Source of the DNA: Nitrospirota bacterium
GTDB lineage: Bacteria; NPL-UPA2; JAADIA01
Assembly (NCBI GenBank): GCA_013151555.1
Contig: JAADIA010000079.1
Location: 1,699 to 65,698, forward strand
Direction: 5' to 3'
Length of the DNA stretch: 64,000 nt
Below, piece by piece: positions 2,585 through 49,764 of the stretch. Position 1 is the first letter of the stretch; the number at the start of each line of letters is the position of its first letter. The position numbers and the translations under genes were made by a program. Below the pieces are notes generated by a model, which was not told the DNA's origin, ran no database searches, and saw only the letters and a list, made by a program, of their open reading frames with translations.

Positions 2585-3778
2585 ATGTCTTTATCAGGGA
2601 GAGCTTCTTTAATCAGTCCTTCACCTACTTTGGCCATAACGGCTAAAGCGAAAGCGATGAAAGCACAGGGTATTGATATAATTGGATTTGGGGCGGGAGA
2701 ACCGGATTTTGATACGCCGGAGCACATTAAAGAAGAAGCCCGGAAAGCTCTTCAAGAGGGTTTTACTAAATATACCCCTGTCTCGGGGATTGAGCCGTTA
2801 AAGAAAGCAATTTGTAAGAAGCTTAAAAAGGATAACGGGTTGAACTACGATCCGGCACAGATAATCGTTTCCTGTGGAGCGAAACATTCTTTATACAATG
2901 CTATCCAAATTATTTGTGAAGAGGGAGATGAAGTTATCCTGCCTTCACCTTATTGGGTGAGTTATCCGGAACAGATAAAATTGTCGGGGGCAAGACCCGT
3001 GATAGTAGAAACCCGTGAGGCAGAGGGATTTAAACTCGGGCCGGAAAAGTTTTTAAAAGAGATAACTTCTCAAACGAAACTTTTGATCCTGAACAGTCCT
3101 AACAATCCTACGGGTGCTGTCTACTCCCGGGATGAGTTGCTGGCTCTTGCCGAGATTGCTATGGAGAAGAAGATTTACGTTATTTCCGATGAAATATATG
3201 AAAAGATAACTTACGATAAGGTAAAACATATCAGCATTGCTTCTTTAAGTCCCCGGATGCAGGATTTAACCGTGGTAGTAAATGGCGTATCCAAAGCATA
3301 TTCCATGACTGGTTGGAGGATAGGCTATGCTGCCGGAAATAAAGAGATTATCGCGGCTATGTCCCGGCTGCAAAGTCATAGCACTTCCAATCCTGATTCT
3401 ATCGCTCAGAGGGCGGCTGGGGAAGCTATTGAGGGAACTCAGGAGCCTCTTAAGGAAATGGTGGCTGAGTTCGAAAAGCGAAGGGATTATCTCGGGGAGA
3501 GACTGAATAACCTGAAAGGTTTTTCCTGTCAGCAACCTCAAGGTGCTTTTTATGCTTTTCCCAATATCTCGGGAGTGCTGGGAAAATTTTTCCGGGGTCG
3601 GAAGATAGAAGATTCTTCTTCTCTGACAGGTTTGCTCCTGGATGAGGCAAGGGTAGCTGTTATTCCCGGGTCGGCCTTTGGACAGGATAATTACCTCAGG
3701 TTTTCTTATGCAACTTCCATGGAGAATATTAGCAAAGGGCTTGACCGGATAGAAGACGTGGTGAACAAGATAAATTAG
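2585..3778 (+). CDS. Aspartate aminotransferase (class I PLP aminotransferase)
   Basis: 397 aa; N-terminal SPSPTLAITAKAKAMKAQGIDIIGFGAGEPDFDTP and PLP-lysine region SKAYSMTGWRIGY typical of AspAT. Confidence 0.85.
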   Translation: MSLSGRASLISPSPTLAITAKAKAMKAQGIDIIGFGAGEPDFDTPEHIKEEARKALQEGFTKYTPVSGIEPLKKAICKKLKKDNGLNYDPAQIIVSCGAKHSLYNAIQIICEEGDEVILPSPYWVSYPEQIKLSGARPVIVETREAEGFKLGPEKFLKEITSQTKLLILNSPNNPTGAVYSRDELLALAEIAMEKKIYVISDEIYEKITYDKVKHISIASLSPRMQDLTVVVNGVSKAYSMTGWRIGYAAGNKEIIAAMSRLQSHSTSNPDSIAQRAAGEAIEGTQEPLKEMVAEFEKRRDYLGERLNNLKGFSCQQPQGAFYAFPNISGVLGKFFRGRKIEDSSSLTGLLLDEARVAVIPGSAFGQDNYLRFSYATSMENISKGLDRIEDVVNKIN

Positions 3779-3812
3779 ACCAGGGACTGAAGAATAAGAA
3801 AAAAGCTGTATA

Positions 3813-4047
3813 GGACGCAGATAAACGCAGATTTAAAGGATTAAAAACACAAGACAACTTTATAATAGTTTCAGATTTTACTCCCTCCTGAGGCGGACAG
3901 GAATTATCAGCAGGGTGAGTTTTAAGAATTAGGAAAAATAAAAAGATTAAACCTTAATTCTTAGTTTATATAAATATTGTCCCGGTAATTTATACTTTGG
4001 GTTCCGGATTTTTAATTATCTGTATCTATCTGCGAATATCTGCGTCC
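3813..4047. repeat. Inverted tandem-unit repeat element (unit ACGCAGAT) with an inner nested palindrome (ttaagaattagg / ccttaattcttag)
   Basis: Forward arm ggacgcagataaacgcagat at 3813-3832; inverted arm atctgtatctatctgcgaatatctgcgtcc at 4018-4047; inner palindrome at 3922-3964. Confidence 0.6.
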
Positions 4048-4116
4048 AAAAAAGAAAGTTTTTATTGTGTTTTTTTGTGTCCTCTGTGGTAACGAAGTTT
4101 TCTTGGAGAAAGAACG

Positions 4117-10088: not shown

Positions 10089-10517
10089 ATGTCTAAAGTC
10101 AAGGATTGCTTAAAAGAGTTGAAATTTGATGATAAGGGCCTGATTCCTGTTGTCATTCAGGAGGTAGAAACCAACGAGGTTCTCATGCTGGCTTATATGA
10201 ATGAAACCTCTCTTTCGGCTACGCTGGAAACGGGAAGGACGCATTTCTGGAGCCGGTCGAGGGGGAAGTTATGGAAAAAAGGAGAGGTTTCCGGTTGCGA
10301 ACAGATCGTTCACGAAATTTTTGTTGATTGCGATGAAGATAGTCTTCTAATCAAGGTCCATCAGAAGGGCGGAGCCTGTCATACCGGTTATAAATCCTGT
10401 TTCTATCGAAAGATTAATGTCAAGCAGGATATGATTGAGATCGTTAGCCGCAAGGTTTTTCATCCTCATGAGAAGTATGGCAAGAAGGAAAAGCAAGAAG
10501 AAAATTTGACAGGATGA
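10089..10517 (+). CDS. hisI: Phosphoribosyl-AMP cyclohydrolase
   Basis: ATG at 10089 preceded by GGAGGAG; GLIPVVIQ...LMLAYMN...[18 protein letters not shown]...[10 protein letters not shown] is canonical HisI. Stop codon lies inside an ACAGGAT repeat arm. Confidence 0.85.
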
Positions 10518-12762: not shown

Positions 12763-12776
12763 AAGATGAGGAAAAT

Positions 12777-12912
12777 TTGACAGGATTAACAGGATAGACA
12801 GGATAAAATTATTACCTGAATAAGCAAATGAAACAAATTAAAATTAAATTATTACAGGTTTGTCTTTTAGTGGCTCTTTAAAAAATCTTGTTAATCCTGT
12901 TTATCCTGTCAA
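12777..12912. repeat. ACAGGAT-family inverted tandem-unit element (3 units - spacer - 3 inverted units)
   Basis: ttgacaggattaacaggatagacaggat at 12777-12804; atcttgttaatcctgtttatcctgtcaa at 12885-12912; spacer itself holds aattattacctg/aattattacagg. Confidence 0.7.
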
Positions 12913-12942
12913 AAGAAGTAAAGTAACTAAGTGAGGTATTTT

Positions 12943-16282: not shown

Positions 16283-16310
16283 AGGTAAGGTAAAAAAATA
16301 CTATGAAAAC

Positions 16311-16401
16311 CACAGAGACACGGAAGAGCGGAAACACGGAAAAAAGAATTCAGAATGGGAAGAAGTAAAGAGTTGTAAATTAAATTTCCGTGTTTCCGTG
16401 G
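16311..16401. repeat. Inverted tandem-unit element (unit ACGGAAA) between pnp and ileS
   Basis: cacagagacacggaagagcggaaacacggaaaa at 16311-16343; tttccgtgtttccgtgg at 16385-16401. Confidence 0.6.
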
Positions 16402-20176: not shown

Positions 20177-20285
20177 CTGACAGGATTTACAGGATGAAAA
20201 CTCGATTGAGTCGACTCTGTTGACAGGATTAAAATTTAAGTATAGAAAAAACAAAAAATCTTGTTAATCCTGTTCATCCCGTCAA
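20177..20285. repeat. ACAGGAT-family inverted tandem-unit element with a central GAGTCGACTC palindrome
   Basis: ctgacaggatttacaggatg at 20177-20196; ttgacaggatt at 20220-20230; atcttgttaatcctgttcatcccgtcaa at 20258-20285. Confidence 0.7.
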
Positions 20286-20418
20286 AAATTTTGTAGGATT
20301 TTCTTCGCATCTTCATTCTTTTATATCTTCATGATTATCAGTTATCTTAAACTTCTGTGTTCATCATCAGTGTCTGATTAGTTTTTCCTTTCTCTGTAGT
20401 TGCCAAGGTGTTCTAATC

Positions 20419-23230: not shown

Positions 23231-24500
23231 AGGTAGTCGGTTGATTGATCCGGATAGTGGATACGATGATATTTCTAATATTCTGATAGAGAGGGGCAAA
23301 ATAACCGCTATCGGGAGAAAAGTCTCCGCGAAAGGGGCAAAGGTAATTGAAGCGGAAGGGAAGATAGCTGTCCCGGGACTGATTGATATGCACGTCCATC
23401 TCCGGGAGCCGGGAAGGGAGGATGAAGAGACCATTCTCTCGGGGACGCGGGCTGCAGGGCGAGGCGGATTCACCGCTATTGCTTGTATGCCTAATACCGA
23501 TCCGGTTATTGATAATCAAGGAATAGTAAAGTTTATTTACTCCCAGACCGAAAAAGTGGGGATAGTTTCGGTCTTTCCCATTGGCAGTATAACCAAGGGG
23601 CTCCGCGGGGAGGAGTTAGCGGAGATCGGGGAACTTAAGGAAGCGGGAGTAGTGGGTATCTCCGATGACGGGAAACCAGTGGAAAATTCAGAAGTTATGC
23701 GGCGGGCTCTGGAATATGCAAAGATGTTTGATCTCGTGGTTATCTCTCACTGTGAAGATAAAGACCTGAAGGGGGAGGGAGTAATGCATGAGGGTTATTA
23801 CTCTACCCTTCTTGGCCTTCCCGGCATACCCGCGGCAGCTGAGGAAGTTATGGTAGCCAGGGACTTGGGGTTAGCGGAACTGAGTGGAGGATGGCTTCAT
23901 ATCGCCCATGTGAGCACGGCTGGGACCGTGGAGATGATCAGGCAGGCGAAATCGAGAGGTATCCGGGTAACTTGTGAGACAGCTCCTCATTATTTCAGTT
24001 TAACCGATGAAGCAGTTAAGGATTTTGATACCAATGCCAAGATGAATCCTCCCTTGCGGACGGAGGAAGATGTGGAGGCGATAAAAGAGGGGCTGAAGGA
24101 TGGGACTATCGATGTTATTGCTACCGATCATGCACCTCATACCAGCGTGGAGAAAGAAGTAGAATATACCATAGCCCCTTTCGGGGTGATCGGGTTGGAA
24201 ACGGCCTTATCTTTAATTATTACCAAGCTTGTTAAAGAAGATATCTTAACTTTAAGTCAGGCTATTGCCAAGGTCTCCCTGAATCCGGCTAAGATATTAA
24301 GGATTGATAAAGGTATCCTGAAAGTAGGAGCTGATGCCGACATTACCATTATTGACCCGGACAGAGAAATTATTGTAGAATCCGGCGCGTTTGAATCTAA
24401 GAGTAGTAATTCTCCTTTCCTGGACTGGAAACTCAAAGGTGCGGCTACTATGACGATAGTGGGGGGGAGAGTGGTTATGAAAGAAGGGAGAATACTGTAA
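23214..24500 (+). CDS. pyrC: Dihydroorotase
   Basis: [10 protein letters not shown] metal-binding motif; GTG start overlapping pyrB end. Confidence 0.85.
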
Positions 24501-24521
24501 GAGGCATAGGGATTAAGTGGT

Positions 24522-24648
24522 GAAATCCCAAACTAAAAATCCCAATACTACCAAATAAATCCCAATACCACCAATTTTTGGGGTTTGGTAATACTTGGAT
24601 TTTTGGTTTACGGCGCAAGACGTTTGGGTTTGGTAACTATTGGGATTT
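24522..24648. repeat. CCCAATAC/TTGGTA-family inverted tandem-unit element 3' of pyrC
   Basis: gaaatcccaaactaaaaatcccaatactaccaaataaatcccaataccaccaa at 24522-24574; inverted tttggtaatacttggatttttgg at 24584-24606 and gtttgggtttggtaactattgggattt at 24622-24648. Confidence 0.65.
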
Positions 24649-24659
24649 AGGATTTAACT

Positions 24660-25493
24660 ATGTGGCAGGGTAGAGTAAAAATTTCTGTTAATGAAGAGGT
24701 TGCTCCCGGGTACTTCAGGATGGTTTTAAATGCTCCTCAGGTAGCTGAAGATGCGGAAGCGGGACAATTTATTCATATTCGAGTCAATGATGAGTATGAT
24801 CCTTTACTGCGGCGGCCGCTTAGCATACATAGAATAATTAGTCGAAGGTTAAAGGTTAAAAGTTTAAAGTTGCCGGATATTGAAGTGCTTTATGAGGTCG
24901 TAGGGAAGGGGACGAAGATATTGGCGGGAAAGCGGCCGGGAGAAGATCTGGATATTCTGGGACCGCTGGGCAATGGTTTTAAACTCGGCTGTGTTTCCGG
25001 GACGGTTATCCTGATCGCCGGGGGAATGGGTGTCGCTCCTCTCCTGGCTCTGGCTGAGGAGATAAGGAGAGAGGAAAAGGTTAAGGATACCTACGTTATT
25101 ATTGGGGCGAGAACGAAGGCGCTGGTGTTATGCGAGGATGCTTTCCGGGATTTAGCGGCCAAGGAGGTGCAAGTGGCTACTGATGATGGAAGCAGAGGAT
25201 ACAAAGGATTAGCGACTGACCTTCTGCAAGAGTTGTTTTCAACTTTAAACCTTAAACTTTCAACCACAGTTTACGCCTGTGGTCCGGAAGGAATGCTTCG
25301 GGAGGTAGCTGCCCTTACGGTTGCCAAGGGGGTTCCCTGCCGGATGTCTTTGGAGAACCGAATGGGGTGTGGAGTAGGAGCATGTCTGGGGTGTGTTGTG
25401 AGAGTGAAAAGTTTGCAGTCGGGAGTTGAAAGTTACAAACGTGTATGTAAGGATGGACCTGTCTTTGAAGCCGGGGAGATAATCTGGGAGTGA
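24660..25493 (+). CDS. pyrK: Dihydroorotate dehydrogenase electron-transfer subunit (FAD/[2Fe-2S])
   Basis: LLRRPLSI, GPLGNGF, C-terminal Cys cluster CGVGACLGC. Contains an in-frame inverted pair of GGTTAAAG-family repeat arms (see repeats at 24844 and 25240). Confidence 0.85.
   Translation: MWQGRVKISVNEEVAPGYFRMVLNAPQVAEDAEAGQFIHIRVNDEYDPLLRRPLSIHRIISRRLKVKSLKLPDIEVLYEVVGKGTKILAGKRPGEDLDILGPLGNGFKLGCVSGTVILIAGGMGVAPLLALAEEIRREEKVKDTYVIIGARTKALVLCEDAFRDLAAKEVQVATDDGSRGYKGLATDLLQELFSTLNLKLSTTVYACGPEGMLREVAALTVAKGVPCRMSLENRMGCGVGACLGCVVRVKSLQSGVESYKRVCKDGPVFEAGEIIWE
24844..24872. repeat. GGTTGAAAGTTAAGG-family repeat arm inside pyrK coding sequence (encodes RRLKVKSLKL)
   Basis: gaaggttaaaggttaaaagtttaaagttg. 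Confidence 0.6.
25240..25265. repeat. Inverted GGTTGAAAGTTAAGG-family repeat arm inside pyrK coding sequence (encodes STLNLKLST)
   Basis: caactttaaaccttaaactttcaacc; its reverse complement ggttgaaagtttaaggtttaaagttg matches the arm at 24844. Confidence 0.6.
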
Positions 25494-26413
25494 AAAGCGA
25501 GCCAAATATTTCCGTAGATATAGCCGGGATAAAGATGCGTTGCCCCGTTATGGTAGCCTCCGGGACTTTCGGTTATGGGGAAGAGTATGCAGACCTGCTT
25601 GACCTTAGCCGGTTAGGAGCACTTGTTGCCAAAGGGATTACCCTTAATCCTCGTCAGGGAAATCCTCCGCCCAGAATAGTGGAAACCCCGGCGGGTATGC
25701 TCAATGCCATTGGATGGGAAAATGTCGGTTTGCAGGTTTTCCTTGAGGAGAAACTTCCTTTCCTGAAGAGATTTAACACCCCGCTTATCGTCAATGTTTG
25801 TGGCAAGAAAGAGGAAGAGTATGTACAGATAGCTGAACGTCTGGATGACCGGGAGGGAGTTGCCGGGTTAGAGCTGAATATTTCCTGTCCCAATGTTAGA
25901 AGCGGGGGGTTATCGTTTGGGAGGGAAGCGGGGGCTACCCAAAAGTTAGTGGCTGGGGTGAGAAGAGTGACGAAGCTCCCGCTTATTGTTAAATTAAGCC
26001 CCAATGTTACTGATATAGTATCTATCGGACGGGCAGCTCAGGATGCCGGCGCCGATGGGTTATCCTTGATAAATACTCTTGTGGGAATAGCCGTTGATAT
26101 AAAAACGAAAAGACCGAAGTTGACCAATATAACCGGGGGGCTCTCCGGTCCGGCTATTAAGCCGGTGGCTCTGCGCTCGGTCTGGGAGGTAGCCGGGAAG
26201 GTGGATTTGCCTATTATCGGGATGGGAGGAATTATGACCGGGGAAGACGCCGTTGAGTTTCTCCTGGCAGGCGCAACAGCAGTGGCGGTAGGGACGGCTA
26301 ACTTCGTTAATCCTCACGCGGCTTTAGATGTAGCTGAGGGGATAAGAGAATATCTGGAAGAGAACAAAATTCAGGACGTTAATAGTTTAAGAGAGTATGG
26401 GAAAAAATGGTGA
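25490..26413 (+). CDS. pyrD: Dihydroorotate dehydrogenase catalytic subunit (class 1B)
   Basis: GTG start overlapping pyrK stop; 307 aa TIM-barrel DHODH pattern (ASGTFGYG, NTPLIVNV, GGIMTGEDA). Confidence 0.85.
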   Translation: MKSEPNISVDIAGIKMRCPVMVASGTFGYGEEYADLLDLSRLGALVAKGITLNPRQGNPPPRIVETPAGMLNAIGWENVGLQVFLEEKLPFLKRFNTPLIVNVCGKKEEEYVQIAERLDDREGVAGLELNISCPNVRSGGLSFGREAGATQKLVAGVRRVTKLPLIVKLSPNVTDIVSIGRAAQDAGADGLSLINTLVGIAVDIKTKRPKLTNITGGLSGPAIKPVALRSVWEVAGKVDLPIIGMGGIMTGEDAVEFLLAGATAVAVGTANFVNPHAALDVAEGIREYLEENKIQDVNSLREYGKKW

Positions 26414-26424
26414 AACGATTGGAG

Positions 26425-26562
26425 AAGGCACAAAGTGACAAAGGCACATAGGCACAAAGGCACAGAGTAACAAAGGCACAAAGGAAAAACAAGAACCAAC
26501 ACTTTTGTACTTTTTTTGGTTTTTAAACTTAGTGCCTCTGTGCCTTAGTGCCTCTGTGCCTG
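26425..26562. repeat. AAGGCACA-family inverted tandem-unit element 3' of pyrD
   Basis: Five forward units (aaggcacaaag, gacaaaggcacat, aggcacaaagg, cacagag, acaaaggcacaaagg) at 26425-26484; inverted agtgcctctgtgccttagtgcctctgtgcctg at 26531-26562. Confidence 0.65.
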
Positions 26563-26576
26563 TTTAAGGTAAAAAA

Positions 26577-27314
26577 ATGACCTTGAAGGTTAAAGATAGG
26601 TTGGTTCTGGCGCTGGATGTTGACGATAAGGAAACGGCTCTCGGGTTAGTAGAACAATTAGAAGAATATGTAGGTGTCTTTAAAGTGGGGGTGCAGCTAT
26701 TTTCCGGGGAGGGGCCGGAGATTATCCGTTGCCTTCGGGGAAAGGGAAAAAAGGTATTCTATGATGCCAAATACCATGATATTCCTACCACTGTGGCCAA
26801 GGCTGGAAAGATGGCCGTTCGCTTAGGGGCTTATATTTATAATGTCCATACCCTGGGTGGTTACGAGATGATGAGAATGACGGTGGAGGAGACAGAGAAG
26901 GAAGCTGCGGCGTTGGAAGTGGAGAAACCGCTCGTTTTGGGAGTAACCGTTTTAACTCATCTGGATCAGGGGATGTTGAAGGAAGTGGGGATTGAGAAGA
27001 GTCTGAAAAAAGAAGTGGTCAGTCTGGCAAAACTGGCGCAGAGGGCAGGATTGGAAGGAGTCGTTAGTTCTCCCCGGGAAATAAGGTTGATTCGAGAGGC
27101 TTGTGGAGATGATTTTCTTATCCTGACGCCGGGGATAAGGCCTTGTTGGGCGGAGGGGAATGAGCAGAGACGTTCGATGACTCCCGGGGAAGCCCTGGAA
27201 GCCGGAGCGGATTTTATCGTTATCGGTCGTCCTATCCTTCAGGCGGATGACCCTGCAGGAGCTGCTCAAAGGGTGCTCAGGGAGATGGAGGAAGCAGTTG
27301 CGAAAGGAAAGTGA
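26577..27314 (+). CDS. pyrF: Orotidine 5'-phosphate decarboxylase
   Basis: LVLALDVDD, FKVG, K-containing active-site pattern. Confidence 0.85.
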   Translation: MTLKVKDRLVLALDVDDKETALGLVEQLEEYVGVFKVGVQLFSGEGPEIIRCLRGKGKKVFYDAKYHDIPTTVAKAGKMAVRLGAYIYNVHTLGGYEMMRMTVEETEKEAAALEVEKPLVLGVTVLTHLDQGMLKEVGIEKSLKKEVVSLAKLAQRAGLEGVVSSPREIRLIREACGDDFLILTPGIRPCWAEGNEQRRSMTPGEALEAGADFIVIGRPILQADDPAGAAQRVLREMEEAVAKGK

Positions 27315-29130: not shown

Positions 29131-29748
29131 TTGAGCTCTCAAGTAGAGGAGCCCTTGTTTATGCTCAAAGGCAAGGAAATAATTATCGGAGTAACGGGGA
29201 GTATTGCGGCTTATAAATCGGCGGAAATCGTTAGGAGGTTGAAGAATGAAGGAGCCGAAGTGACCGTAATTATGACCGAAAAAGCTACCAAATTTATCAC
29301 TCCTCTCACTTTGGAAACTCTTTCTCGAAACCCGGTTTATTGTTCTCTGTTTTCTGAGGAGCGAGAATGGGACCCTGCTCACATTTCTCTGGCCGGGAGA
29401 GCGGATCTGATTTTGATAGCGCCGGCTACTGCCAATCTCATTGGCAAATTAGCTGCCGGGATAGCTGATGACCTTCTGACAACAACGGTGATGACGGTTA
29501 AGACAATGGTTATTCTTGCTCCGGCTATGAATACCCGGATGTATGAAAATCCTATTCTTCAGGAGAATCTGAACAGACTAAAAAGTTTCGGGTATGAAAT
29601 TATCGAACCCGAATACGGTTTTCTTGCCTGCGGCGAAAAAGGGAAAGGGCGGCTGGCTGATGTTGATACCATTCTTAAAATGGTGGAAGACAATTTTAAC
29701 AGAAGACAGAAGACAGAGAATGGAGAACAGAAAACAGAGAGAATTTGA
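29131..29748 (+). CDS. coaC: Phosphopantothenoylcysteine decarboxylase (flavoprotein)
   Basis: GVTGSIAAYKSAEIVRRL FMN-binding N-terminus; C-terminal tail RRQKTENGEQKTERI is encoded by a GACAGA repeat arm. Confidence 0.8.
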   Translation: MSSQVEEPLFMLKGKEIIIGVTGSIAAYKSAEIVRRLKNEGAEVTVIMTEKATKFITPLTLETLSRNPVYCSLFSEEREWDPAHISLAGRADLILIAPATANLIGKLAAGIADDLLTTTVMTVKTMVILAPAMNTRMYENPILQENLNRLKSFGYEIIEPEYGFLACGEKGKGRLADVDTILKMVEDNFNRRQKTENGEQKTERI

Positions 29749-36152: not shown

Positions 36153-36366
36153 TTTTTTAGATTATCCTCTTCAATAGGCGGGCAGGATAACCACTACTTT
36201 TGCTAAAATATTTACTTTAACCTACCATATAGAGGGGGGAAAATCAAGAAAAATGTTGAACAGAAAAATGTTGACAGTATCTTTGGGCTATGATAGGTTT
36301 ATTGTGGCGGCTGTCCGCTTGGGGCAGACGAAATAAGGTAGTAACAGTTAAATATTTATGATTAAG

Positions 36367-36438
36367 GCGACGTAGCCAAGTGGCTAAGGCAGCGGTCTGC
36401 AAAACCGCAATTCGTGAGTTCGAATCTCACCGTCGCCT
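36367..36438 (+). tRNA. tRNA-Cys (GCA)
   Basis: Cloverleaf readable: acceptor ggcgacg/cgtcgcc, anticodon loop ctGCAaa, T-arm gttcgaatc. Confidence 0.85.
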
Positions 36439-36442
36439 CTAT

Positions 36443-36532
36443 GCCGGGGTGGCGGAACAGGCAGACGCGACGGACTTAAAATCCGTTGGAGGTTTCCCCT
36501 TCGTGCCGGTTCGACTCCGGCCCTCGGCACCA
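36443..36532 (+). tRNA. tRNA-Leu (TAA) with long variable arm, encoded CCA
   Basis: Acceptor gccgggg/cctcggc, anticodon loop ctTAAaa, long extra arm, T-arm ggttcgactcc, 3' ACCA. Confidence 0.8.
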
Positions 36533-36544
36533 CAAACTCTATAT

Positions 36545-36576
36545 TTTGGGTTTGGTATTTATTGGGATTTGGGTTT
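36545..36576. repeat. TTGGTA-TTGGGATTT family arm between tRNA-Leu and tRNA-Val
   Basis: tttgggtttggtatttattgggatttgggttt; same family as 24584-24648. Confidence 0.55.
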
Positions 36577-36584
36577 TCCTTGTG

Positions 36585-36658
36585 GGGCGGTTAGCTCAGC
36601 TGGTTAGAGTGCCACGTTGACATCGTGGAAGTCACTGGTTCAAGTCCAGTACCGCCCA
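36585..36658 (+). tRNA. tRNA-Val (GAC)
   Basis: Acceptor gggcggt/accgccc, D-loop agctggttag, anticodon loop ttGACat, T-loop ggttcaagtcc. Confidence 0.8.
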
Positions 36659-36664
36659 TTATTT

Positions 36665-36753
36665 GACAGAAAACAGAGGACAGATATCAGAAGACAGATG
36701 GATAAAAACAGATGTTTAATATAAGGTTGTTTCTGTTATCTGTCTTCTGTTTA
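36665..36753. repeat. GACAGA-family inverted tandem-unit element between tRNA-Val and thrS
   Basis: gacagaaaacagaggacagatatcagaagacagatggataaaaacagatg at 36665-36714; inverted gtttctgttatctgtcttctgtttag at 36728-36753. Confidence 0.65.
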
Positions 36754-36763
36754 GGGAAAAAGC

Positions 36764-38530
36764 ATGATGAATTCTAAAGATAAGCATAAGGCTGATTCAA
36801 AAGATAACCTGGAAACTCTGAGGCATAGTGCCGCTCATATCCTGGCCCAGGCAGTGAAGGAGCTTTATCCGGAAACCAAGTTGGGTATTGGCCCTGCCAT
36901 TGCCGATGGTTTCTATTATGATTTTGAGAGAAAAACTCCTTTTACTCTTGAAGATTTGGCAAAGATTGAAGAGAGGATGCAGAGAATTGTGAAGGCTGCC
37001 CTTCCTTTTCTGAAAAGTGTTCTTTCTAAGCAAGATGCTCTGGAAATATTTTCTGAATTGGAGGAGCCATATAAGTTAGAACTTCTGGAAGATCTGGAGA
37101 ATGATGAAGTAACTATCTACCGGCAGGGAAATTTTACTGACCTCTGTAGGGGGCCGCATCTGGCGAATACCGGAGAGCTGAAATCTTTCAAGCTCCTTAG
37201 CATAGCCGGAGCCTACTGGCGGGGTAGCGAAAAGAATCCTATGCTCCAGCGAATATACGGGACGGCCTTTCCCGGGGAAGTGGAGTTAGCAGAATATCTG
37301 CAGAATCTTGAAGAAGCTAAGAAGAGGGACCATCGCAGGTTAGGGAAAGAATTGGATCTCTTTAGCCTGGAGGAGGATGTTGGTCCCGGCTTGGTCCTCT
37401 GGCACCCTCGCGGGGCGATGTTGCGGAAGGTCATCGAGGACTTCTGGCGGGATGAGCATTTGAAACGGGGGTACCAACTTGTCTATACTCCTCATATCGC
37501 CGGAGAGAATTTGTGGAAGGTAAGTGGACATCTTGACTATTTCAGGGAAATGATGTATCCTTCTATGAGAATGGACGAGCGGAACTATCTTCTCAAACCG
37601 ATGAATTGTCCCTTTCATATAAGAATTTATAAGCAGAAAGTTCGTAGTTATCGAGACCTCCCCATTCGTTATGCTGAGTTAGGAACAGTCTACCGCTATG
37701 AACGTTCCGGGGTCCTGCATGGGTTGTTGAGGGTGCGAGGTTTTACTCAAGATGATGCCCATATTTTTTGTACTCCGGAGCAATTGTCCAAAGAAATTCT
37801 GAGCATTATCGATTTGATCCAGTTCATGTTGGAGGCTTTTGGTTATAAGGAGTTTCAGGTCGAGTTGAGTGTTCGCCATCCGGATAGAAGCGGTGATTAT
37901 CTGGGAGATGATGAAGGCTGGGCTCGGGCGGAGGCAGCTTTAGTTGAATCTCTGGACAAGAGGAATCTCTCCTATACGGTAGGGGAAGGAGAAGCAACCT
38001 TCTATGGTCCTAAGATCGATATCAAGCTGGTTGATGCTCTGGGAAGAGGTTGGCAAGGTCCAACAATCCAGGTAGATTTCAACCTTCCGGGACGTCTTAA
38101 TATTACTTATGTGGGAGATGATGGAAAGAAACATCCGGTGATGATGCTCCATCGAACCGTACTGGGAACGATGGAACGGTTTGTCGGAGGTTTGATAGAG
38201 CATTATGTCGGAGCATTTCCTTCCTGGCTGGCTCCTCTTCAGATCAGGGTGGTGACGATCAACCAGGGGCAGGAAGCTTATGCAAAGAAGGTTCTGCAGG
38301 AACTGCAGGAAAAAGGATTGCGGGCTGATCTGGATGCGGGAAAGGAAACGATTAGTTATAAGATTGGGAAGGCTGAACGGGAAAAAATTCCTTATATTTT
38401 AGTAGCGGGAGATAGGGAAGTAGAAGCGGGCACTGTTTCGGTAAGAAAGAGAAAGGATCGTCATCAAAAAGTAATGAAGGTTGAGGAGTTTATTGACAGG
38501 ATTCAGGAAGAAATAAAAAACCGTGAATAG
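36764..38530 (+). CDS. thrS: Threonyl-tRNA synthetase (lacking the N-terminal TGS domain)
   Basis: 588 aa; begins at the editing-domain motif RHSAAHILAQA; class II core and anticodon-binding domain present. Confidence 0.9.
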   Translation: MMNSKDKHKADSKDNLETLRHSAAHILAQAVKELYPETKLGIGPAIADGFYYDFERKTPFTLEDLAKIEERMQRIVKAALPFLKSVLSKQDALEIFSELEEPYKLELLEDLENDEVTIYRQGNFTDLCRGPHLANTGELKSFKLLSIAGAYWRGSEKNPMLQRIYGTAFPGEVELAEYLQNLEEAKKRDHRRLGKELDLFSLEEDVGPGLVLWHPRGAMLRKVIEDFWRDEHLKRGYQLVYTPHIAGENLWKVSGHLDYFREMMYPSMRMDERNYLLKPMNCPFHIRIYKQKVRSYRDLPIRYAELGTVYRYERSGVLHGLLRVRGFTQDDAHIFCTPEQLSKEILSIIDLIQFMLEAFGYKEFQVELSVRHPDRSGDYLGDDEGWARAEAALVESLDKRNLSYTVGEGEATFYGPKIDIKLVDALGRGWQGPTIQVDFNLPGRLNITYVGDDGKKHPVMMLHRTVLGTMERFVGGLIEHYVGAFPSWLAPLQIRVVTINQGQEAYAKKVLQELQEKGLRADLDAGKETISYKIGKAEREKIPYILVAGDREVEAGTVSVRKRKDRHQKVMKVEEFIDRIQEEIKNRE

Positions 38531-38588
38531 GATTAAGAATTAAGAATTAAGAAGAAAAACTTAATACTTACAACTTACAACTTAATTC
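38531..38588. repeat. Inverted tandem-unit element (unit GAATTAAG) immediately 3' of thrS
   Basis: gattaagaattaagaattaagaag then cttaatacttacaacttacaacttaattc. Confidence 0.55.
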
Positions 38589-38631
38589 TGTTTTTTAGAG
38601 GAGGTGACGACTAATAGCTAAAGAAATTAGG

Positions 38632-39126
38632 ATGAATGCCCGGATTAAAGCAGTGGAAGTAAGAGTTATTGAACATGATGGTAGTCAGTCAGGCATAATG
38701 CCGGTGAAGGAAGCTCTAAAGTTGGCTGAAGAGAAAGGCCTGGATTTAGTTGAGGTTGCTCCTCAGGCAAGTCCACCGGTATGCCGTGTTATGGATTACG
38801 GCAAGTATAGGTATGAACAGCGCAAGCGGACTAAGGAAGCCAAGAAAAAGCAGAAGATTACGGAAATCAAAGAGATCAAGTTGCGTCCGAAGATTGAAGA
38901 GCATGACTATCAGGTAAAGCTGCGGCAGGCGCAAAGGTTCTTGAAAAGCGGAGATAAGACAAAAGTTACTATCGTGTTTAGGGGCAGGGAAATGGCTCAT
39001 CTGGATATCGGGAAGAAGCTTTTAGACCGATTCGCCGGCGACATGACCGATTTGGGGGTAGTGGAAGTGGCTGCCAGAATGGAAGGTAGGAGTATGGGGA
39101 TGATCCTTGCTCCTCATAAGCAATAG
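38632..39126 (+). CDS. infC: Translation initiation factor IF-3
   Basis: IKAVEVRVIEHDGSQSGIM...PPVCRVMDYGKY canonical IF3; an in-frame AUA at 38614 with ideal SD spacing may be the true (non-canonical) start. Confidence 0.85.
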   Translation: MNARIKAVEVRVIEHDGSQSGIMPVKEALKLAEEKGLDLVEVAPQASPPVCRVMDYGKYRYEQRKRTKEAKKKQKITEIKEIKLRPKIEEHDYQVKLRQAQRFLKSGDKTKVTIVFRGREMAHLDIGKKLLDRFAGDMTDLGVVEVAARMEGRSMGMILAPHKQ

Positions 39127-39187
39127 AAGATAGAAAATAGAAGACAGGGAGTAGAGGACCGAAGAGTTTGACTTCTATCATCTGTGG
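39125..39187. repeat. GACAGA/AGATAGA-like inverted element 3' of infC (arm overlaps infC stop)
   Basis: agaagatagaaaatagaagacaggg at 39125-39149; inverted cttctatcatctgtgg at 39172-39187. Confidence 0.5.
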
Positions 39188-39399: not shown

Positions 39400-39406
39400 A
39401 ACAGAT

Positions 39407-39577
39407 GGTTGAAAGTTAAGGTTGTAAAGTCTAAAGTAAAAAAACTTTTGGAAGAAGATATTTGTAAGTTTGAGATATAAGGTTTTTAAGTATAAGCCCC
39501 GGGTTGTCTAAGATTTAGGCAAGGTTTTTATTGTTTTCTTGCTTTTAACTTTCGACCTTCAATTTTAAACTATCAAC
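39407..39577. repeat. GGTTGAAAGTTAAGG-family inverted element between rpmI and rplT
   Basis: ggttgaaagttaaggttgtaaagtctaaagt at 39407-39437; inverted cttttaactttcgaccttcaattttaaactatcaac at 39542-39577. Confidence 0.6.
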
Positions 39578-39602
39578 TGTCTTTTGAGAAGGAGAATAAA
39601 AA

Positions 39603-39974
39603 ATGCCTCGAGTTAAGAGTAGTGTTACCTCCAGAAGACGGCACAAAAAATTTTTAAAGCAAGCCAAAGGTTACTGGGGAGGGAGAAGTAGGCTTTATCG
39701 GACAGCGCGGGAAGCAGTAGAGAGAAGTTGGAGCTATGCTTTTCGAGACAGAAAGGTAAAGAAGAGAGATTTTAGAGGTTTATGGATTTCCCGTATCAAT
39801 GCCGCGGCCCGTATCCATAACCTTAGTTATAGCAAGTTCATATATGGTCTTAATAAAGCTAATGTCGGCTTGAACAGGAAAGTACTGGCCGACCTGGCGG
39901 TGAGGGAACCCACTACTTTCAAAGAACTGGCCAAGGTAGCTAAAGATGGTTTAAAGTTAAAAACTGAAGGTTGA
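39603..39974 (+). CDS. rplT: 50S ribosomal protein L20
   Basis: [35 protein letters not shown] canonical L20; last residues (GLKLKTEG) and the stop are encoded by a repeat arm. Confidence 0.9.
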
Positions 39975-40000
39975 AATCAAATACTTTAAACCTTAAACTG
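39948..40000. repeat. GGTTGAAAGTTAAGG-family inverted element overlapping the rplT 3' end
   Basis: ggtttaaagttaaaaactgaaggttgaaatc at 39948-39978; inverted ctttaaaccttaaactg at 39984-40000. Confidence 0.55.
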
Positions 40001-40008
40001 AGGTAATC

Positions 40009-44713: not shown

Positions 44714-44738
44714 GTTTGCTACCTCCTTCGGAAGTTAA

Positions 44739-44824
44739 GACTATAGACTATAGACCATAGACTAAACGAGGGGAAAAGGGATGGTGAAAAGTCTAAAGTC
44801 TGATGTCTATGGTCTATTGTCTGA
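44739..44824. repeat. Inverted tandem-unit element (unit CTATAGA) between pheS and pheT
   Basis: gactatagactatagaccatagactaaa at 44739-44766; inverted agtctaaagtctgatgtctatggtctattgtctga at 44790-44824. Confidence 0.6.
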
Positions 44825-46588: not shown

Positions 46589-46739
46589 GGACAGGATTAA
46601 CAGGATGTACAGGATAATTTTCTTAAAGAATTTTAGTTGGGGAAACTTTACAAAACTTTTTGAATTTTGTAAAATCAGCTTTTATCCTTTGATTTAATTA
46701 AAAGAATAAAAATCCGGTAAATCCAGTAAATCCTGTCAA
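46589..46739. repeat. ACAGGAT-family inverted tandem-unit element 3' of pheT
   Basis: ggacaggattaacaggatgtacaggat at 46589-46615; inverted atccggtaaatccagtaaatcctgtcaa at 46712-46739; spacer contains tttacaaaa/ttttgtaaa palindrome. Confidence 0.7.
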
Positions 46740-46783
46740 TTTTAGAGTTGCCGCTGTAGACGGCCTAAGTTTGGAGAGAAGTC

Positions 46784-49227: not shown

Positions 49228-49350
49228 ATTGTAAATTGAAGATTGGAAATTGGAAATTTTAAAATGGAAGAGAAGAAATGAGATTCAATCTTTTTTGATT
49301 TATTTCAATAAGTTTAAAATTTACAATTCTCAATTTACAATTCGAGCGAA
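49228..49350. repeat. Inverted tandem-unit element (unit ATTGGAA / TTGTAAAT) upstream of rpsP
   Basis: attgtaaattgaagattggaaattggaaatttt at 49228-49260; inverted aaaatttacaattctcaatttacaattc at 49323-49350. Confidence 0.6.
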
Positions 49351-49377: not shown

Positions 49378-49665
49378 GTGGCTGTAGTTATTAGATTGAA
49401 AAGAATGGGAGCGAAGAAAAGACCTTTTTATCGATTGATCGTAGCTGATTCCCGTATGCCCCGGGATGGCCGGTTTATCGAGACTATTGGTCTATATAAT
49501 CCTTTAGAAAATCCTTCTAAGATTTCTGTTAGTCAGGAAAAAGCTCTTTATTGGCTGAAACAGGGAGCGAAACCATCTCCGACAGCAAAACAGATTCTGA
49601 GGAAGAGCGGAGTTTGGGAGAAGTTTAAACCACAGAAAGTACAGAAGACAGAGAATAAAGAATAG
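49378..49665 (+). CDS. rpsP: 30S ribosomal protein S16
   Basis: GTG start; [43 protein letters not shown] canonical; C-terminal tail QKTENKE encoded by repeat arm. Confidence 0.9.
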
Positions 49666-49764
49666 AAGACAGAGAACAGATGACAGAAATAATCTTATAT
49701 TGAACGGCTGTTTTTATACGTCTGTCTCTTGATTTCTGACATCTGATGTCTGTTTCCTCTGTGG
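49664..49764. repeat. GACAGA-family inverted tandem-unit element 3' of rpsP
   Basis: agaagacagagaacagatgacagaaat at 49664-49690; inverted cgtctgtctcttgatttctgacatctgatgtctgtttcctctgtgg at 49719-49764. Confidence 0.7.

Follow-up and report, generated by a model that had tools for sequence, protein, structure and literature searches.

How do repeats built from 7-nucleotide units come to lie in frame, and as an inverted pair, inside a conserved metabolic gene, and does the pair serve that gene in any way? The question arises at pyrK, the gene for the electron transfer subunit of dihydroorotate dehydrogenase B (DHOD B), in 64,000 nucleotides of DNA from a Nitrospirota bacterium (GTDB lineage Bacteria; NPL-UPA2; JAADIA01; assembly GCA_013151555.1, contig JAADIA010000079.1, positions 1,699 to 65,698 of the forward strand). 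We call this whole stretch the window and number positions from its first letter. On balance, we favour the explanation that the two arms of the pair are tolerated, frame-filtered heptanucleotide arrays that were spread by local copying, rather than a device specific to pyrK.

Heptanucleotide arrays inside pyrK

The gene and the arrays within it are as follows.

24660-25493, + strand: pyrK coding sequence (CDS; DHOD B electron transfer subunit, host of the arrays), a single long open reading frame (ORF) of 277 aa
24845-24872, + strand: arm 1 (site 1), AAGGTTA AAGGTTA AAAGTTT AAAGTTG; encodes RLKVKSLKL
25237-25267, - strand: arm 2 (site 2), + strand reading TCAACTT TAAACCT TAAACTT TCAACC; encodes STLNLKLST
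25404-25431, + strand: site 3, a degenerate third array, AAAGTTT GCAGTCG GGAGTTG AAAGTTA

The 277-aa ORF is 100% identical to NCBI entry NOX97654.1, a dihydroorotate dehydrogenase electron transfer subunit from a Nitrospirae/Nitrospirota bacterium, and matches PyrK of Lactococcus lactis (5ksw_B) with E = 5e-34; by sequence similarity, its product is identified as PyrK. The original prediction had placed two arms in frame within this gene about 370 bp apart, and a repeat search recovered them at 24847-24872 and 25240-25265, as 26-nt segments that are 85% complementary (22/26 ungapped) and 367 nt apart. Within each arm a 7-nt unit is repeated head to tail about four times, as (AARGTTD)n in arm 1 and as its complement in arm 2, a periodicity that the original prediction had not mentioned. 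Tandem Repeats Finder assigned period 7 and 3.4 copies to 24845-24869, and autocorrelation at period 7 reached 18/21 in arm 1 and 17/21 in arm 2. Scores of at least 17/21 occur in 8 matches (about 7 arrays) across the 64-kb window and in none of its shuffles, and among these arrays only the pyrK arms sit deep within a CDS. Both arms fit the definition of a heptanucleotide long simple sequence repeat (LSSR), that is, head-to-tail units of 5-11 nt in a tract longer than chance. They also stand out in composition, with a GC content of 30% in arm 1 and 29% in arm 2 compared to 50% in the remainder of pyrK.

The gene carries at least three heptamer arrays, of which arms 1 and 2 are two. Site 3 has the orientation of arm 1, being an 81% direct repeat of it and a 71% inverted repeat of arm 2. 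The arms are thus a complementary pair, as had been proposed, but not a unitary element, given the third array at 25404-25431 and the unpaired site-2 arrays of relatives described below. The best inverted repeat in pyrK scores 16, compared to a mean of 10.7 in dinucleotide shuffles, with 6 of 300 dinucleotide shuffles and 7 of 300 codon-order shuffles reaching the same score; since this amounts to p ~0.02 per gene in a window of about 60 genes, the pair score alone is not compelling. A crude comparison of consensus units has the two arms agreeing at just 5/7 positions because the arrays are imperfect, and the ungapped alignment and searches with the IUPAC pattern are better measures.

Loop residues in the PyrK model

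When aligned to L. lactis PyrK (5ksw_B and 1ep3_B), the window protein has 9 additional residues at site 1, 5 at site 2, and 3 at site 3. The earlier figures of about +8 and +5 for the two arms, estimated against Bacillus subtilis PyrK, were therefore close. An AlphaFold model built on 30 relatives has a mean predicted local distance difference test (pLDDT) score of 88 and template modelling (TM) scores of 0.84/0.88 against 5ksw_B. In this model site 1 is a low-confidence loop (residues 61-72, with pLDDT <50 at 64-69) joining strands 54-60 and 73-79, site 2 is a loop (196-201) directly past helix 185-195, and site 3 is a loop (251-256) joining strands 246-250 and 257-261. Site 3 falls in the Cys-rich C-terminal region (2Fe-2S domain), in the interval between the third and fourth cluster cysteines, and the 367 nt separating the arms are conserved PyrK coding sequence that is alignable to the L. 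lactis protein. Judged by the model, the arms encode loop residues of PyrK, in agreement with the placement first suggested, and the added residues are probably tolerated loop filler.

Arrays at the same loops in relatives

The nearest named relative of the window PyrK belongs to candidate division NPL-UPA2 (70% identity), and farther ones are mostly Omnitrophota. Contig scans for relatives gave loci L001-L160, with identities of at most 52% among the matches listed, and these were used as an outgroup survey and not for covariation. The pyrK loci of close relatives were gathered individually and comprise about ten clade members with DNA, all on short metagenome contigs. Sites 1, 2, and 3 vary in length across an alignment of 30 relatives, in which the loops are not conserved, and relatives differ in the presence, length, and unit of an array at exactly the positions of the pyrK arms, which bears out the view of the arms as repeat-family sequence in lineage-variable loops. 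The site-2 peptides are period-7 translations of heptamers in all three frames (STFNFQLST, STVNCQLST, STIDYRLST, TTNHEPRTT), and at the DNA level the site-2 arrays are perfect, with units as follows.

L001: CTCAACT, four copies
L004: GTCAACT, four copies
L005: CACAACT, three copies, plus CACGACT
L025: ATCGACT, four copies
L018: GAAACCC, four copies
L052 (Elusimicrobia): octamer TATCAACT, three copies

At the protein level, a dipeptide is repeated at +7 in 57 of the 100 top relatives with a parsable site 2, compared to at most 9 of 100 for control periods 5, 6, and 8-10; period 4 gives 33 of 100, which we attribute to the conserved LL..LL spacing just upstream of site 2. Recurrences of tripeptides at +7 concentrate at relative protein positions 0.2, 0.4, 0.5, 0.7, and 0.9, marking five hot spots. 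Across 109 loci among the matches listed, the density of period-7 arrays is 0.141 per kb in pyrK and 0.022 per kb in neighbouring long ORFs, a difference of about sixfold. PyrKs of Desulfobacterota and other phyla among the matches listed have no arrays. A TCAAC core at site 2 is common to Omnitrophota-like PyrKs, and the site-1 array is confined to the window's clade. No inverted partner of the site-2 arrays was found within 3 kb in the eight outgroup (Omnitrophota-like) loci checked.

The sole close relative, L161, has a pyrK that is 95% identical in DNA. Its arm 1 has one substitution, and apart from a 17-nt deletion its arm 2 matches that of the window exactly. Site 3 has about 10 differences in 40 positions, compared to 5% elsewhere, and forms a clean array (AAAGGTT AAAAGTT TAAAGTC TAAAGTT GAAAGTT). 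Other relatives have different perfect heptamers at site 3, such as AAAAATC x5 in L163.

Several further features were observed at these loci. The deletion in L161, TTTCAACCACAGTTTAC at about position 1736 (window 25257-25273), lies at the end of arm 2 and frameshifts pyrK; the gene could truly be inactivated, or the lesion could be a misassembly of the one 2.7-kb contig that carries it. In L167 (2167-2186) and L171 (676-698), an in-frame stem-loop, GGGGTACCC-stem-loop-GGGTCGC, is nested in the site-2 array, and the same arrangement can be inferred from the peptides of P0008 and P0017. The stems of L167 and L171 show compensatory changes (ACCCAC AGA GTGGGT versus ACCCGCC GCAA GGCGGGT). A search of the window for the nested hairpin motif GGGGTACCC...GGGTCGC did not find it. 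In L167 an ORF of the DUF2442 family is inserted between pyrC and pyrK (1101-1418), where the window has just a repeat hairpin.

Unit number, stop codons, and reading frame

A perfect array of AAAGTTG, AAGGTTA, or AAGTTTA contains one stop codon per 21 nt in every frame. The site-1 arrays of the clade all read ...GAA AGT TTR... rather than ...AGT TGA..., and in arm 1 the third unit, AAAGTTT, gives AGT TTA in frame where the perfect unit would give a stop. At site 2 of L012, GCGATTA units are accompanied by one GCAATAA variant that abolishes an in-frame TAG. Such stop-avoiding variants indicate that the arrays have been filtered for an open frame. The arrays also differ in length: L007 has a single unit at site 2 and is exactly 7 residues shorter there, the difference from L025 being 21 nt, or three units, and site-1 unit number varies among L162, L163, and L167 in a comparison between species. 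All 10 clade genes with DNA are in frame except that of L161, whose lesion is 17 nt and not a whole number of units.

Probable copying of arrays between sites of one gene

Arrays at different sites of one pyrK can be near or exact duplicates in direct orientation. L001 has an identical 34-nt array at two sites (3294-3334 and 3547-3588), so that the peptide LSTLNSQLSTI occurs twice, and L002 has direct-orientation arrays at 2258-2288 and 2424-2459 that encode RTPYAVRRT and RTPYAVHRT. In L168, AAAGTGA is common to two sites (1329-1363 and 1671-1699), again in direct orientation. At least 6 of 7 unit bases are in common in 7 of 29 array pairs within a gene, compared to 41 of 599 pairs between loci.

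In the window's clade the shared unit also appears in the opposite orientation: site 2 has (TTTCAAC)n, and its complement, in arrays of the (GTTGAAA)n type, is found at sites 1, 3, and/or 5. The units are exactly complementary in L167 (GAAAGTT and TTTCAAC), and in L171, which is without site 1, 16 nt of a site-5 array are perfectly complementary to site 2. Selection for RNA pairing cannot account for duplicates in direct orientation; copying between sites accounts for both orientations.

Related arrays elsewhere in the window

The original prediction had also assigned the arms to a family with members around rplT. A search of the whole window for (AARGTTD)x3 with up to three mismatches gave 14 matches against 0.43 expected, a number reached by 0 of 100 shuffles, and all 14 are confined to pyrK arm 1 (+; including matches with 0 mismatches), pyrK arm 2 (-), and three places near rplT. 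The family members outside pyrK are these.

39407-39436, + strand: upstream arm of the rpmI-rplT intergenic hairpin, GGTTGAAAGTTAAGGTTGTAAAGTCTAAAG; 80% complementary to 25237-25266
39539-39580, - strand: downstream arm of the rpmI-rplT hairpin; four overlapping pattern matches
39946-39973, + strand: arm overlapping the rplT 3' end; pattern matches; encodes the C-terminal tail DGLKLKTEG
39981-40001, - strand: inverted partner just past the rplT stop codon; pattern matches, predicted hairpin

The arm at 39407-39436 is missed by the pattern because of its 8-nt spacing, and it pairs with 39545-39580 in the minimum-energy fold. By local alignment, arm 2 scores 18 against 39406-39435 and 17 against 39983-40000 (shuffle maximum 14), and it has an exact 16-mer, GTTTAAGGTTTAAAGT, in common with 39981-40001. 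Arm 1 alone scores 12.5 against the rest of the window, which is not above chance (shuffle mean 11.9). The family assignment thus stands for the unit and for arm 2 but not for arm 1 taken by itself. The family consists of three inverted pairs, one inside pyrK, one forming the rpmI-rplT hairpin, and one straddling the rplT stop codon, with spacings of 367 nt, about 100 nt, and 7 nt, respectively; the purine-rich arm is upstream on the coding strand in all three.

This family is one of many in the window. Window arrays with periods of 7, 8, and 9 give 8, 3, and 2 matches, respectively, compared to about 0 in shuffles. Many co-directional intergenic gaps contain a long hairpin with arms made of tandem 7-9-nt units, the unit being specific to the locus (AAGGCACA, GACAGGAT, ACAGAAG, AGACTAT, ATTGGAA, AAATCCCAAT, and ACACGGAA are among them), and several units are shared by 2-5 window loci, such as ACAGAAGACAGAG, GACAGGAT, and TGTCCTCTGTGGTWA. 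Two-arm gap hairpins were recorded at the following positions.

3806-4054
12776-12913
16310-16400
20180-20290
24520-24660
26425-26561
36661-36750
38532-38600
39125-39183
44735-44820
46590-46740
49228-49341
49640-49760

The gene row around pyrK is pyrB-pyrC-pyrK-pyrD-pyrF-pyrE, with the names of the genes other than pyrK taken from ORF reading and from Pfam matches at the orthologous locus L163. Its pyrC-pyrK gap (window 24501-24659) holds a two-arm element of the AAATCCCAAT type. The orthologous gap of L161 (1050-1138) holds a different element, of the ACAGAWGACAGA type, although the pyrK DNA is 95% identical, and this element matches the ACAGAAGACAGAG family of the window at 49663-49695 (28/32 bases, score 22, shuffle maximum 15.5). 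The gap in L165 (1134-1252) and L169 (25-110) has yet other units. A different element at the orthologous gap next to so similar a gene indicates that whole two-arm elements are exchanged on a very short evolutionary time scale, and to this extent the word 'colonised' in the original prediction was fair. The coding arrays of L161, in contrast, are nearly unchanged.

The first arms of the hairpins often enter the 3' end of the upstream gene and provide its last codons and sometimes its stop, as in the rplT tail DGLKLKTEG*. Such arms lie at these positions.

39946-39974 (rplT)
29699-29748
49632-49665
10480-10517
38526-38530

A cluster of tRNA-Cys, tRNA-Leu(taa), and tRNA-Val(gac) occupies 36366-36658. 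The interval between tRNA-Leu and tRNA-Val contains a copy of the pyrC-pyrK gap repeat, TTTGGGTTTGGTATTTATTGGGATTT, at 36545-36576, and a two-arm hairpin of the ACAGAAG type directly follows tRNA-Val.

Alternative explanations

The arms could instead form a functional long-range mRNA structure, pairing in the mRNA having been suggested in the original prediction. An imperfect duplex of about 26 bp in untranslated pyrK mRNA would then control ribosome transit, pyrK-pyrD coupling, or decay, in which it could be cut by RNase III, for example, and the two-arm arrays of intergenic gaps would likewise be processing or stability hairpins. The arm 1-arm 2 RNA duplex is calculated at -21.3 kcal/mol, a value not attained in 1000 shufflings of the arm pair, and no other segment of pyrK is as good a partner for arm 1 as arm 2. 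In the minimum-energy fold of the whole gene (ViennaRNA), 13 bp of the arms are paired, with about 10 expected base pairs in the ensemble. The prevalence of hairpin-paired arrays in the window genome and the common polarity of the three family pairs also fit a structural role. However, the 521-nt region folds with no extra stability over its shuffles (z = -0.31), and duplexes of site 1 with site 2 are not better within a species (-22.7 kcal/mol) than across species (-21.7 kcal/mol), nor are those of site 3 with site 2. This energy test of covariation is a weak negative because the included flanks add noise, and direct reading of the units is clearer: the site-2 unit is altered to ATCAAYY in L163, CGACCCT in L165, and ATCGACY in L169, yet sites 1 and 3 of these loci retain AAAGYTG or other units, so that complementarity is gone. 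A site-2 unit that changes without site 1 following gives no support for a conserved mRNA stem. L171 lacks site 1 entirely, the Omnitrophota-like site-2 arrays checked in DNA have no inverted partner, and the arrays of L001, L002, and L168 are direct duplicates. An Rfam scan over 24300-26700 returned three sub-threshold matches (E >=0.07), all on intergenic hairpins and none on the arms. Moreover, translating ribosomes would melt a stem that closes a 367-nt coding loop. We conclude that the stem can form in silico but is without evolutionary support, and a functional role for it is unlikely.

A second suggestion was that the arms mediate inversion of the intervening segment; either this or slippage of heptamers that toggles the pyrK frame would make the locus a switch that turns the gene off. 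Inverted repeats can mediate inversion, a 7-nt unit in a reading frame is not divisible by 3, as in contingency loci, and the 17-nt deletion of L161 at arm 2 does shift the frame. Inversion of 24873-25239 in silico, with or without the arms, nevertheless fills the frame with stop codons, L161 and the window share one orientation, and two orientations each giving a meaningful product were not seen; the inversion switch was rejected on the grounds that the inverted segment destroys the pyrK frame. Frame switching by changes in unit number was not found among the close relatives either: the tracts are short (about four units) and imperfect, every relative other than L161 is in frame, and the L161 deletion, on its single short contig, does not consist of whole units. 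In addition, pyrK is a housekeeping gene, while known contingency loci mostly have surface or restriction functions (PMC4679880). A switch of either kind is highly improbable. CRISPR-like, tRNA-related, and terminator readings of the arms were also dropped, as there are no spacers, no U-tract follows arm 2, and the arms are translated.

The arrays could also be binding sites for a hypothetical protein that reads tandem 7-nt repeats in DNA or RNA, as proposed for Geobacter metallireducens, with the pyrK copies being intragenic members of a regulon or of a nucleoid-organising system. The recurring size of about four units, the dispersal of unit families through the window, and the opposite-strand pairs at variable distance, which resemble the class 1-3 sites of G. 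metallireducens (PMC2700814), are consistent with this. Units vary by locus, however, and among close relatives at one locus, so that a single protein could not read all arrays, and the G. metallireducens assignment is itself a prediction. We regard such sites as quite improbable, and assign a similarly low probability to coincidence, that is, to two arrays that grew independently out of local codons and are complementary by chance, site 1 having started from Lys/Val/Glu codons and site 2 from the Ser-Thr codons TCA ACN that precede IYACGP. Coincidence is favoured by the TCAAC core common to Omnitrophota-like PyrKs, which suggests that site 2 is older than the clade-restricted site-1 array, by the per-gene shuffle p of just ~0.02 with about 60 genes in the window, and by the lack of significant similarity between arm 1 alone and other family members. 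Against it, a match of at least 6/7 between two random heptamers in some register has p ~0.01 by our own estimate, and the units match at 7/7 in L167. The same unit is found at sites 1, 3, and 5 in the clade, the family is present at rplT as well, and in L001 and L002, where one array recurs identically at two sites, copying is evident.

Proposed origin of the arrays

As the comparisons above show, these lineages have many arrays, which are copied from one site to another, are replaced quickly, and stay free of stop codons through editing of their units. Under the explanation that we favour, that of tolerated arrays spread by local copying, a process acting on DNA would make short arrays of 7-9-nt units, with polymerase slippage or reiteration as candidates, and the arrays would be copied to near or distant sites in either orientation, possibly by template switching or gene-conversion-like copying. 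Coding copies are seen in permissive loops, with the frame kept and without stops, a pattern for which selection is the likely cause; the frame would be kept by net changes in multiples of 3 nt, typically one native unit plus three added. PyrK would provide about five loops permissive for array survival, and the arrays presumably persist in the gene since its loops tolerate them. In the window's clade, (TTTCAAC)n at site 2 together with the complementary (GTTGAAA)n at sites 1, 3, and/or 5 yields the inverted pair, and the predicted 26-bp mRNA stem would be a by-product of common origin and not a conserved functional structure.

Several points weigh against this explanation. The copying process is itself hypothetical. 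Slippage by one unit would imply frameshifted intermediates, which fits poorly with a jump from one to four units. A bias to four units also occurs in intergenic heptamers elsewhere (PMC4692102, PMC2700814), which hints at a function or mechanism beyond frame filtering. Arrays in the window genome are usually paired as hairpins, and this pairing could reflect selection for structure. The exact unit complementarity within the clade (L167) and the same polarity of the three family pairs make a structural role there possible, and the clade sample is limited to the ten or so members on short metagenome contigs.

A bolder proposal, which we consider rather doubtful, is that Omnitrophota-like bacteria, including this NPL-UPA2-like metagenome-assembled genome, have an active, as yet undescribed process for writing blocks of about four 7-nt units into DNA and for placing copies of them, in either orientation, nearby within genes and at distant sites; the blocks would be transposase-less 'nano-elements' that swap at intergenic sites in the time that separates genomes with 95% identical pyrK, and that repeatedly remodel the same five surface loops of PyrK. 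The inverted pair in pyrK would be a footprint of this process, and possibly a selected RNA structure in the clade. If arrays are indeed actively written or mobile, they would represent a new kind of very small genetic element.

Tolerated arrays would in themselves be informative. They provide a case in which simple sequence repeats with a unit that is not a multiple of three persist in a conserved metabolic gene, through the addition of three units at once and stop-avoiding edits of units, and the re-use of the same loops across a phylum gives a natural map of the insertion-tolerant loops of PyrK. The 7-residue periodic peptides are driven by DNA and are not protein motifs, which is a warning for annotation and phylogeny. 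The locus is also a tractable case for the origin and spread of heptamer arrays, which are the most frequent of the long simple sequence repeats known in prokaryotes.

Comparison with known repeat systems

The closest precedent, by analogy, is the set of repeat families in G. metallireducens (Aklujkar et al. 2009, PMC2700814), in which the heptanucleotide GGACCGG, repeated four times in tandem, makes up Gmet_H4, and 'global regulator binding sites' of 3-5 tandem 7-9-nt units form pairs, the two sites of a pair lying on opposite strands a variable distance apart. The pyrK arrays resemble these in having about four units of 7-9 nt per array (both arms fall within 3-5 units), in belonging to multicopy families with opposite-strand pairs at variable distance, and in occurring within genes, more than once per gene (2-3 arrays in pyrK). 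The G. metallireducens units (GGACCGG, GTTGCTYN, TCTCCGTS, MTYCTGA) are, however, unrelated to the pyrK unit AARGTTD, which makes the pyrK arrays an analogue and not a member of those families. Phylum and GC content also differ, each locus or small family here has its own unit, and the in-frame filling of homologous loops of one enzyme across a phylum is not described in that paper, where the function of the sites is a prediction only.

LSSRs with units of 5-11 nt are known in prokaryotes, with heptanucleotides the commonest and an origin by slippage proposed (Mrazek et al. 2007, as summarised in PMC4679880 and PMC4692102). The pyrK arrays are likewise head-to-tail 7-nt units far above chance. 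According to the same summaries, LSSRs are mostly intergenic and units within genes are likeliest to be multiples of 3, in contrast to the 7-nt units of pyrK, which lie in an essential-pathway gene and are added three at once. The arrays here also differ in forming inverted pairs and dispersed families.

The TAACTGA repeats of Beggiatoaceae and Cyanobacteria (MacGregor 2015, PMC4679880) occur in 2-6 copies, mostly in intergenic regions and with few in ORFs, where they give the 7-residue periodic LSVISYQ at the protein periphery, mostly at termini. These repeats, and the cyanobacterial short tandemly repeated repetitive (STRR) heptamers, resemble ours as short heptamer arrays that are in part intragenic and overlap the stop codons of upstream genes. 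The TAACTGA system relies on one unit throughout the genome, usually found in direct repeats immediately 5' of start codons, and a translational role was proposed for it (PMC4679880). The arrays described here differ in their many units, in their inverted pairs, and in occupying internal loops of a conserved enzyme. The heptamer repeats GGGAATC and GGGGAYT, described in Xanthomonas and Nostoc (Rehm et al. 2015, PMC4692102), show a strong bias to four units, occupy gaps between co-directional ORFs, and vary among close relatives, features that they have in common with the arrays of the window and its relatives. They are, however, G-rich, quadruplex-forming, and under-represented in coding regions (PMC4692102), while the pyrK arrays are AT-rich, coding, and without G-quadruplex potential.

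The arrays share with repetitive extragenic palindromes (REP), bacterial interspersed mosaic elements (BIME), REP doublets forming hairpins (REPIN), and repeats of the miniature inverted-repeat transposable element (MITE) type the properties of short, dispersed, multicopy hairpin formers with rapid gain and loss between strains. REP and REPIN are extragenic imperfect palindromes mobilised by REP-associated tyrosine transposases (RAYT), and MITEs have terminal inverted repeats and target duplications. Unlike REP and REPIN, the pyrK arms are intragenic, 367 nt apart, and internally periodic, with a unit that differs by locus; unlike in a MITE, the 367 nt between the arms are PyrK coding sequence and not the interior of an element, and some relatives have one arm alone. 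In 2008 Elhai and colleagues reportedly described small dispersed repeats (SDR) that lie within heptamer arrays in Nostoc; the nested stem-loop of L167 and L171, with its compensatory stem changes, resembles these.

Two aspects appear to be undescribed in the literature searched, namely that across a phylum arrays fill the same loops of one housekeeping enzyme in frame, and that the two members of an inverted pair lie within one gene with 367 nt of coding sequence between them. By analogy with the systems compared here, the pyrK arrays have the architecture of known heptamer repeats with unit sequences of their own.

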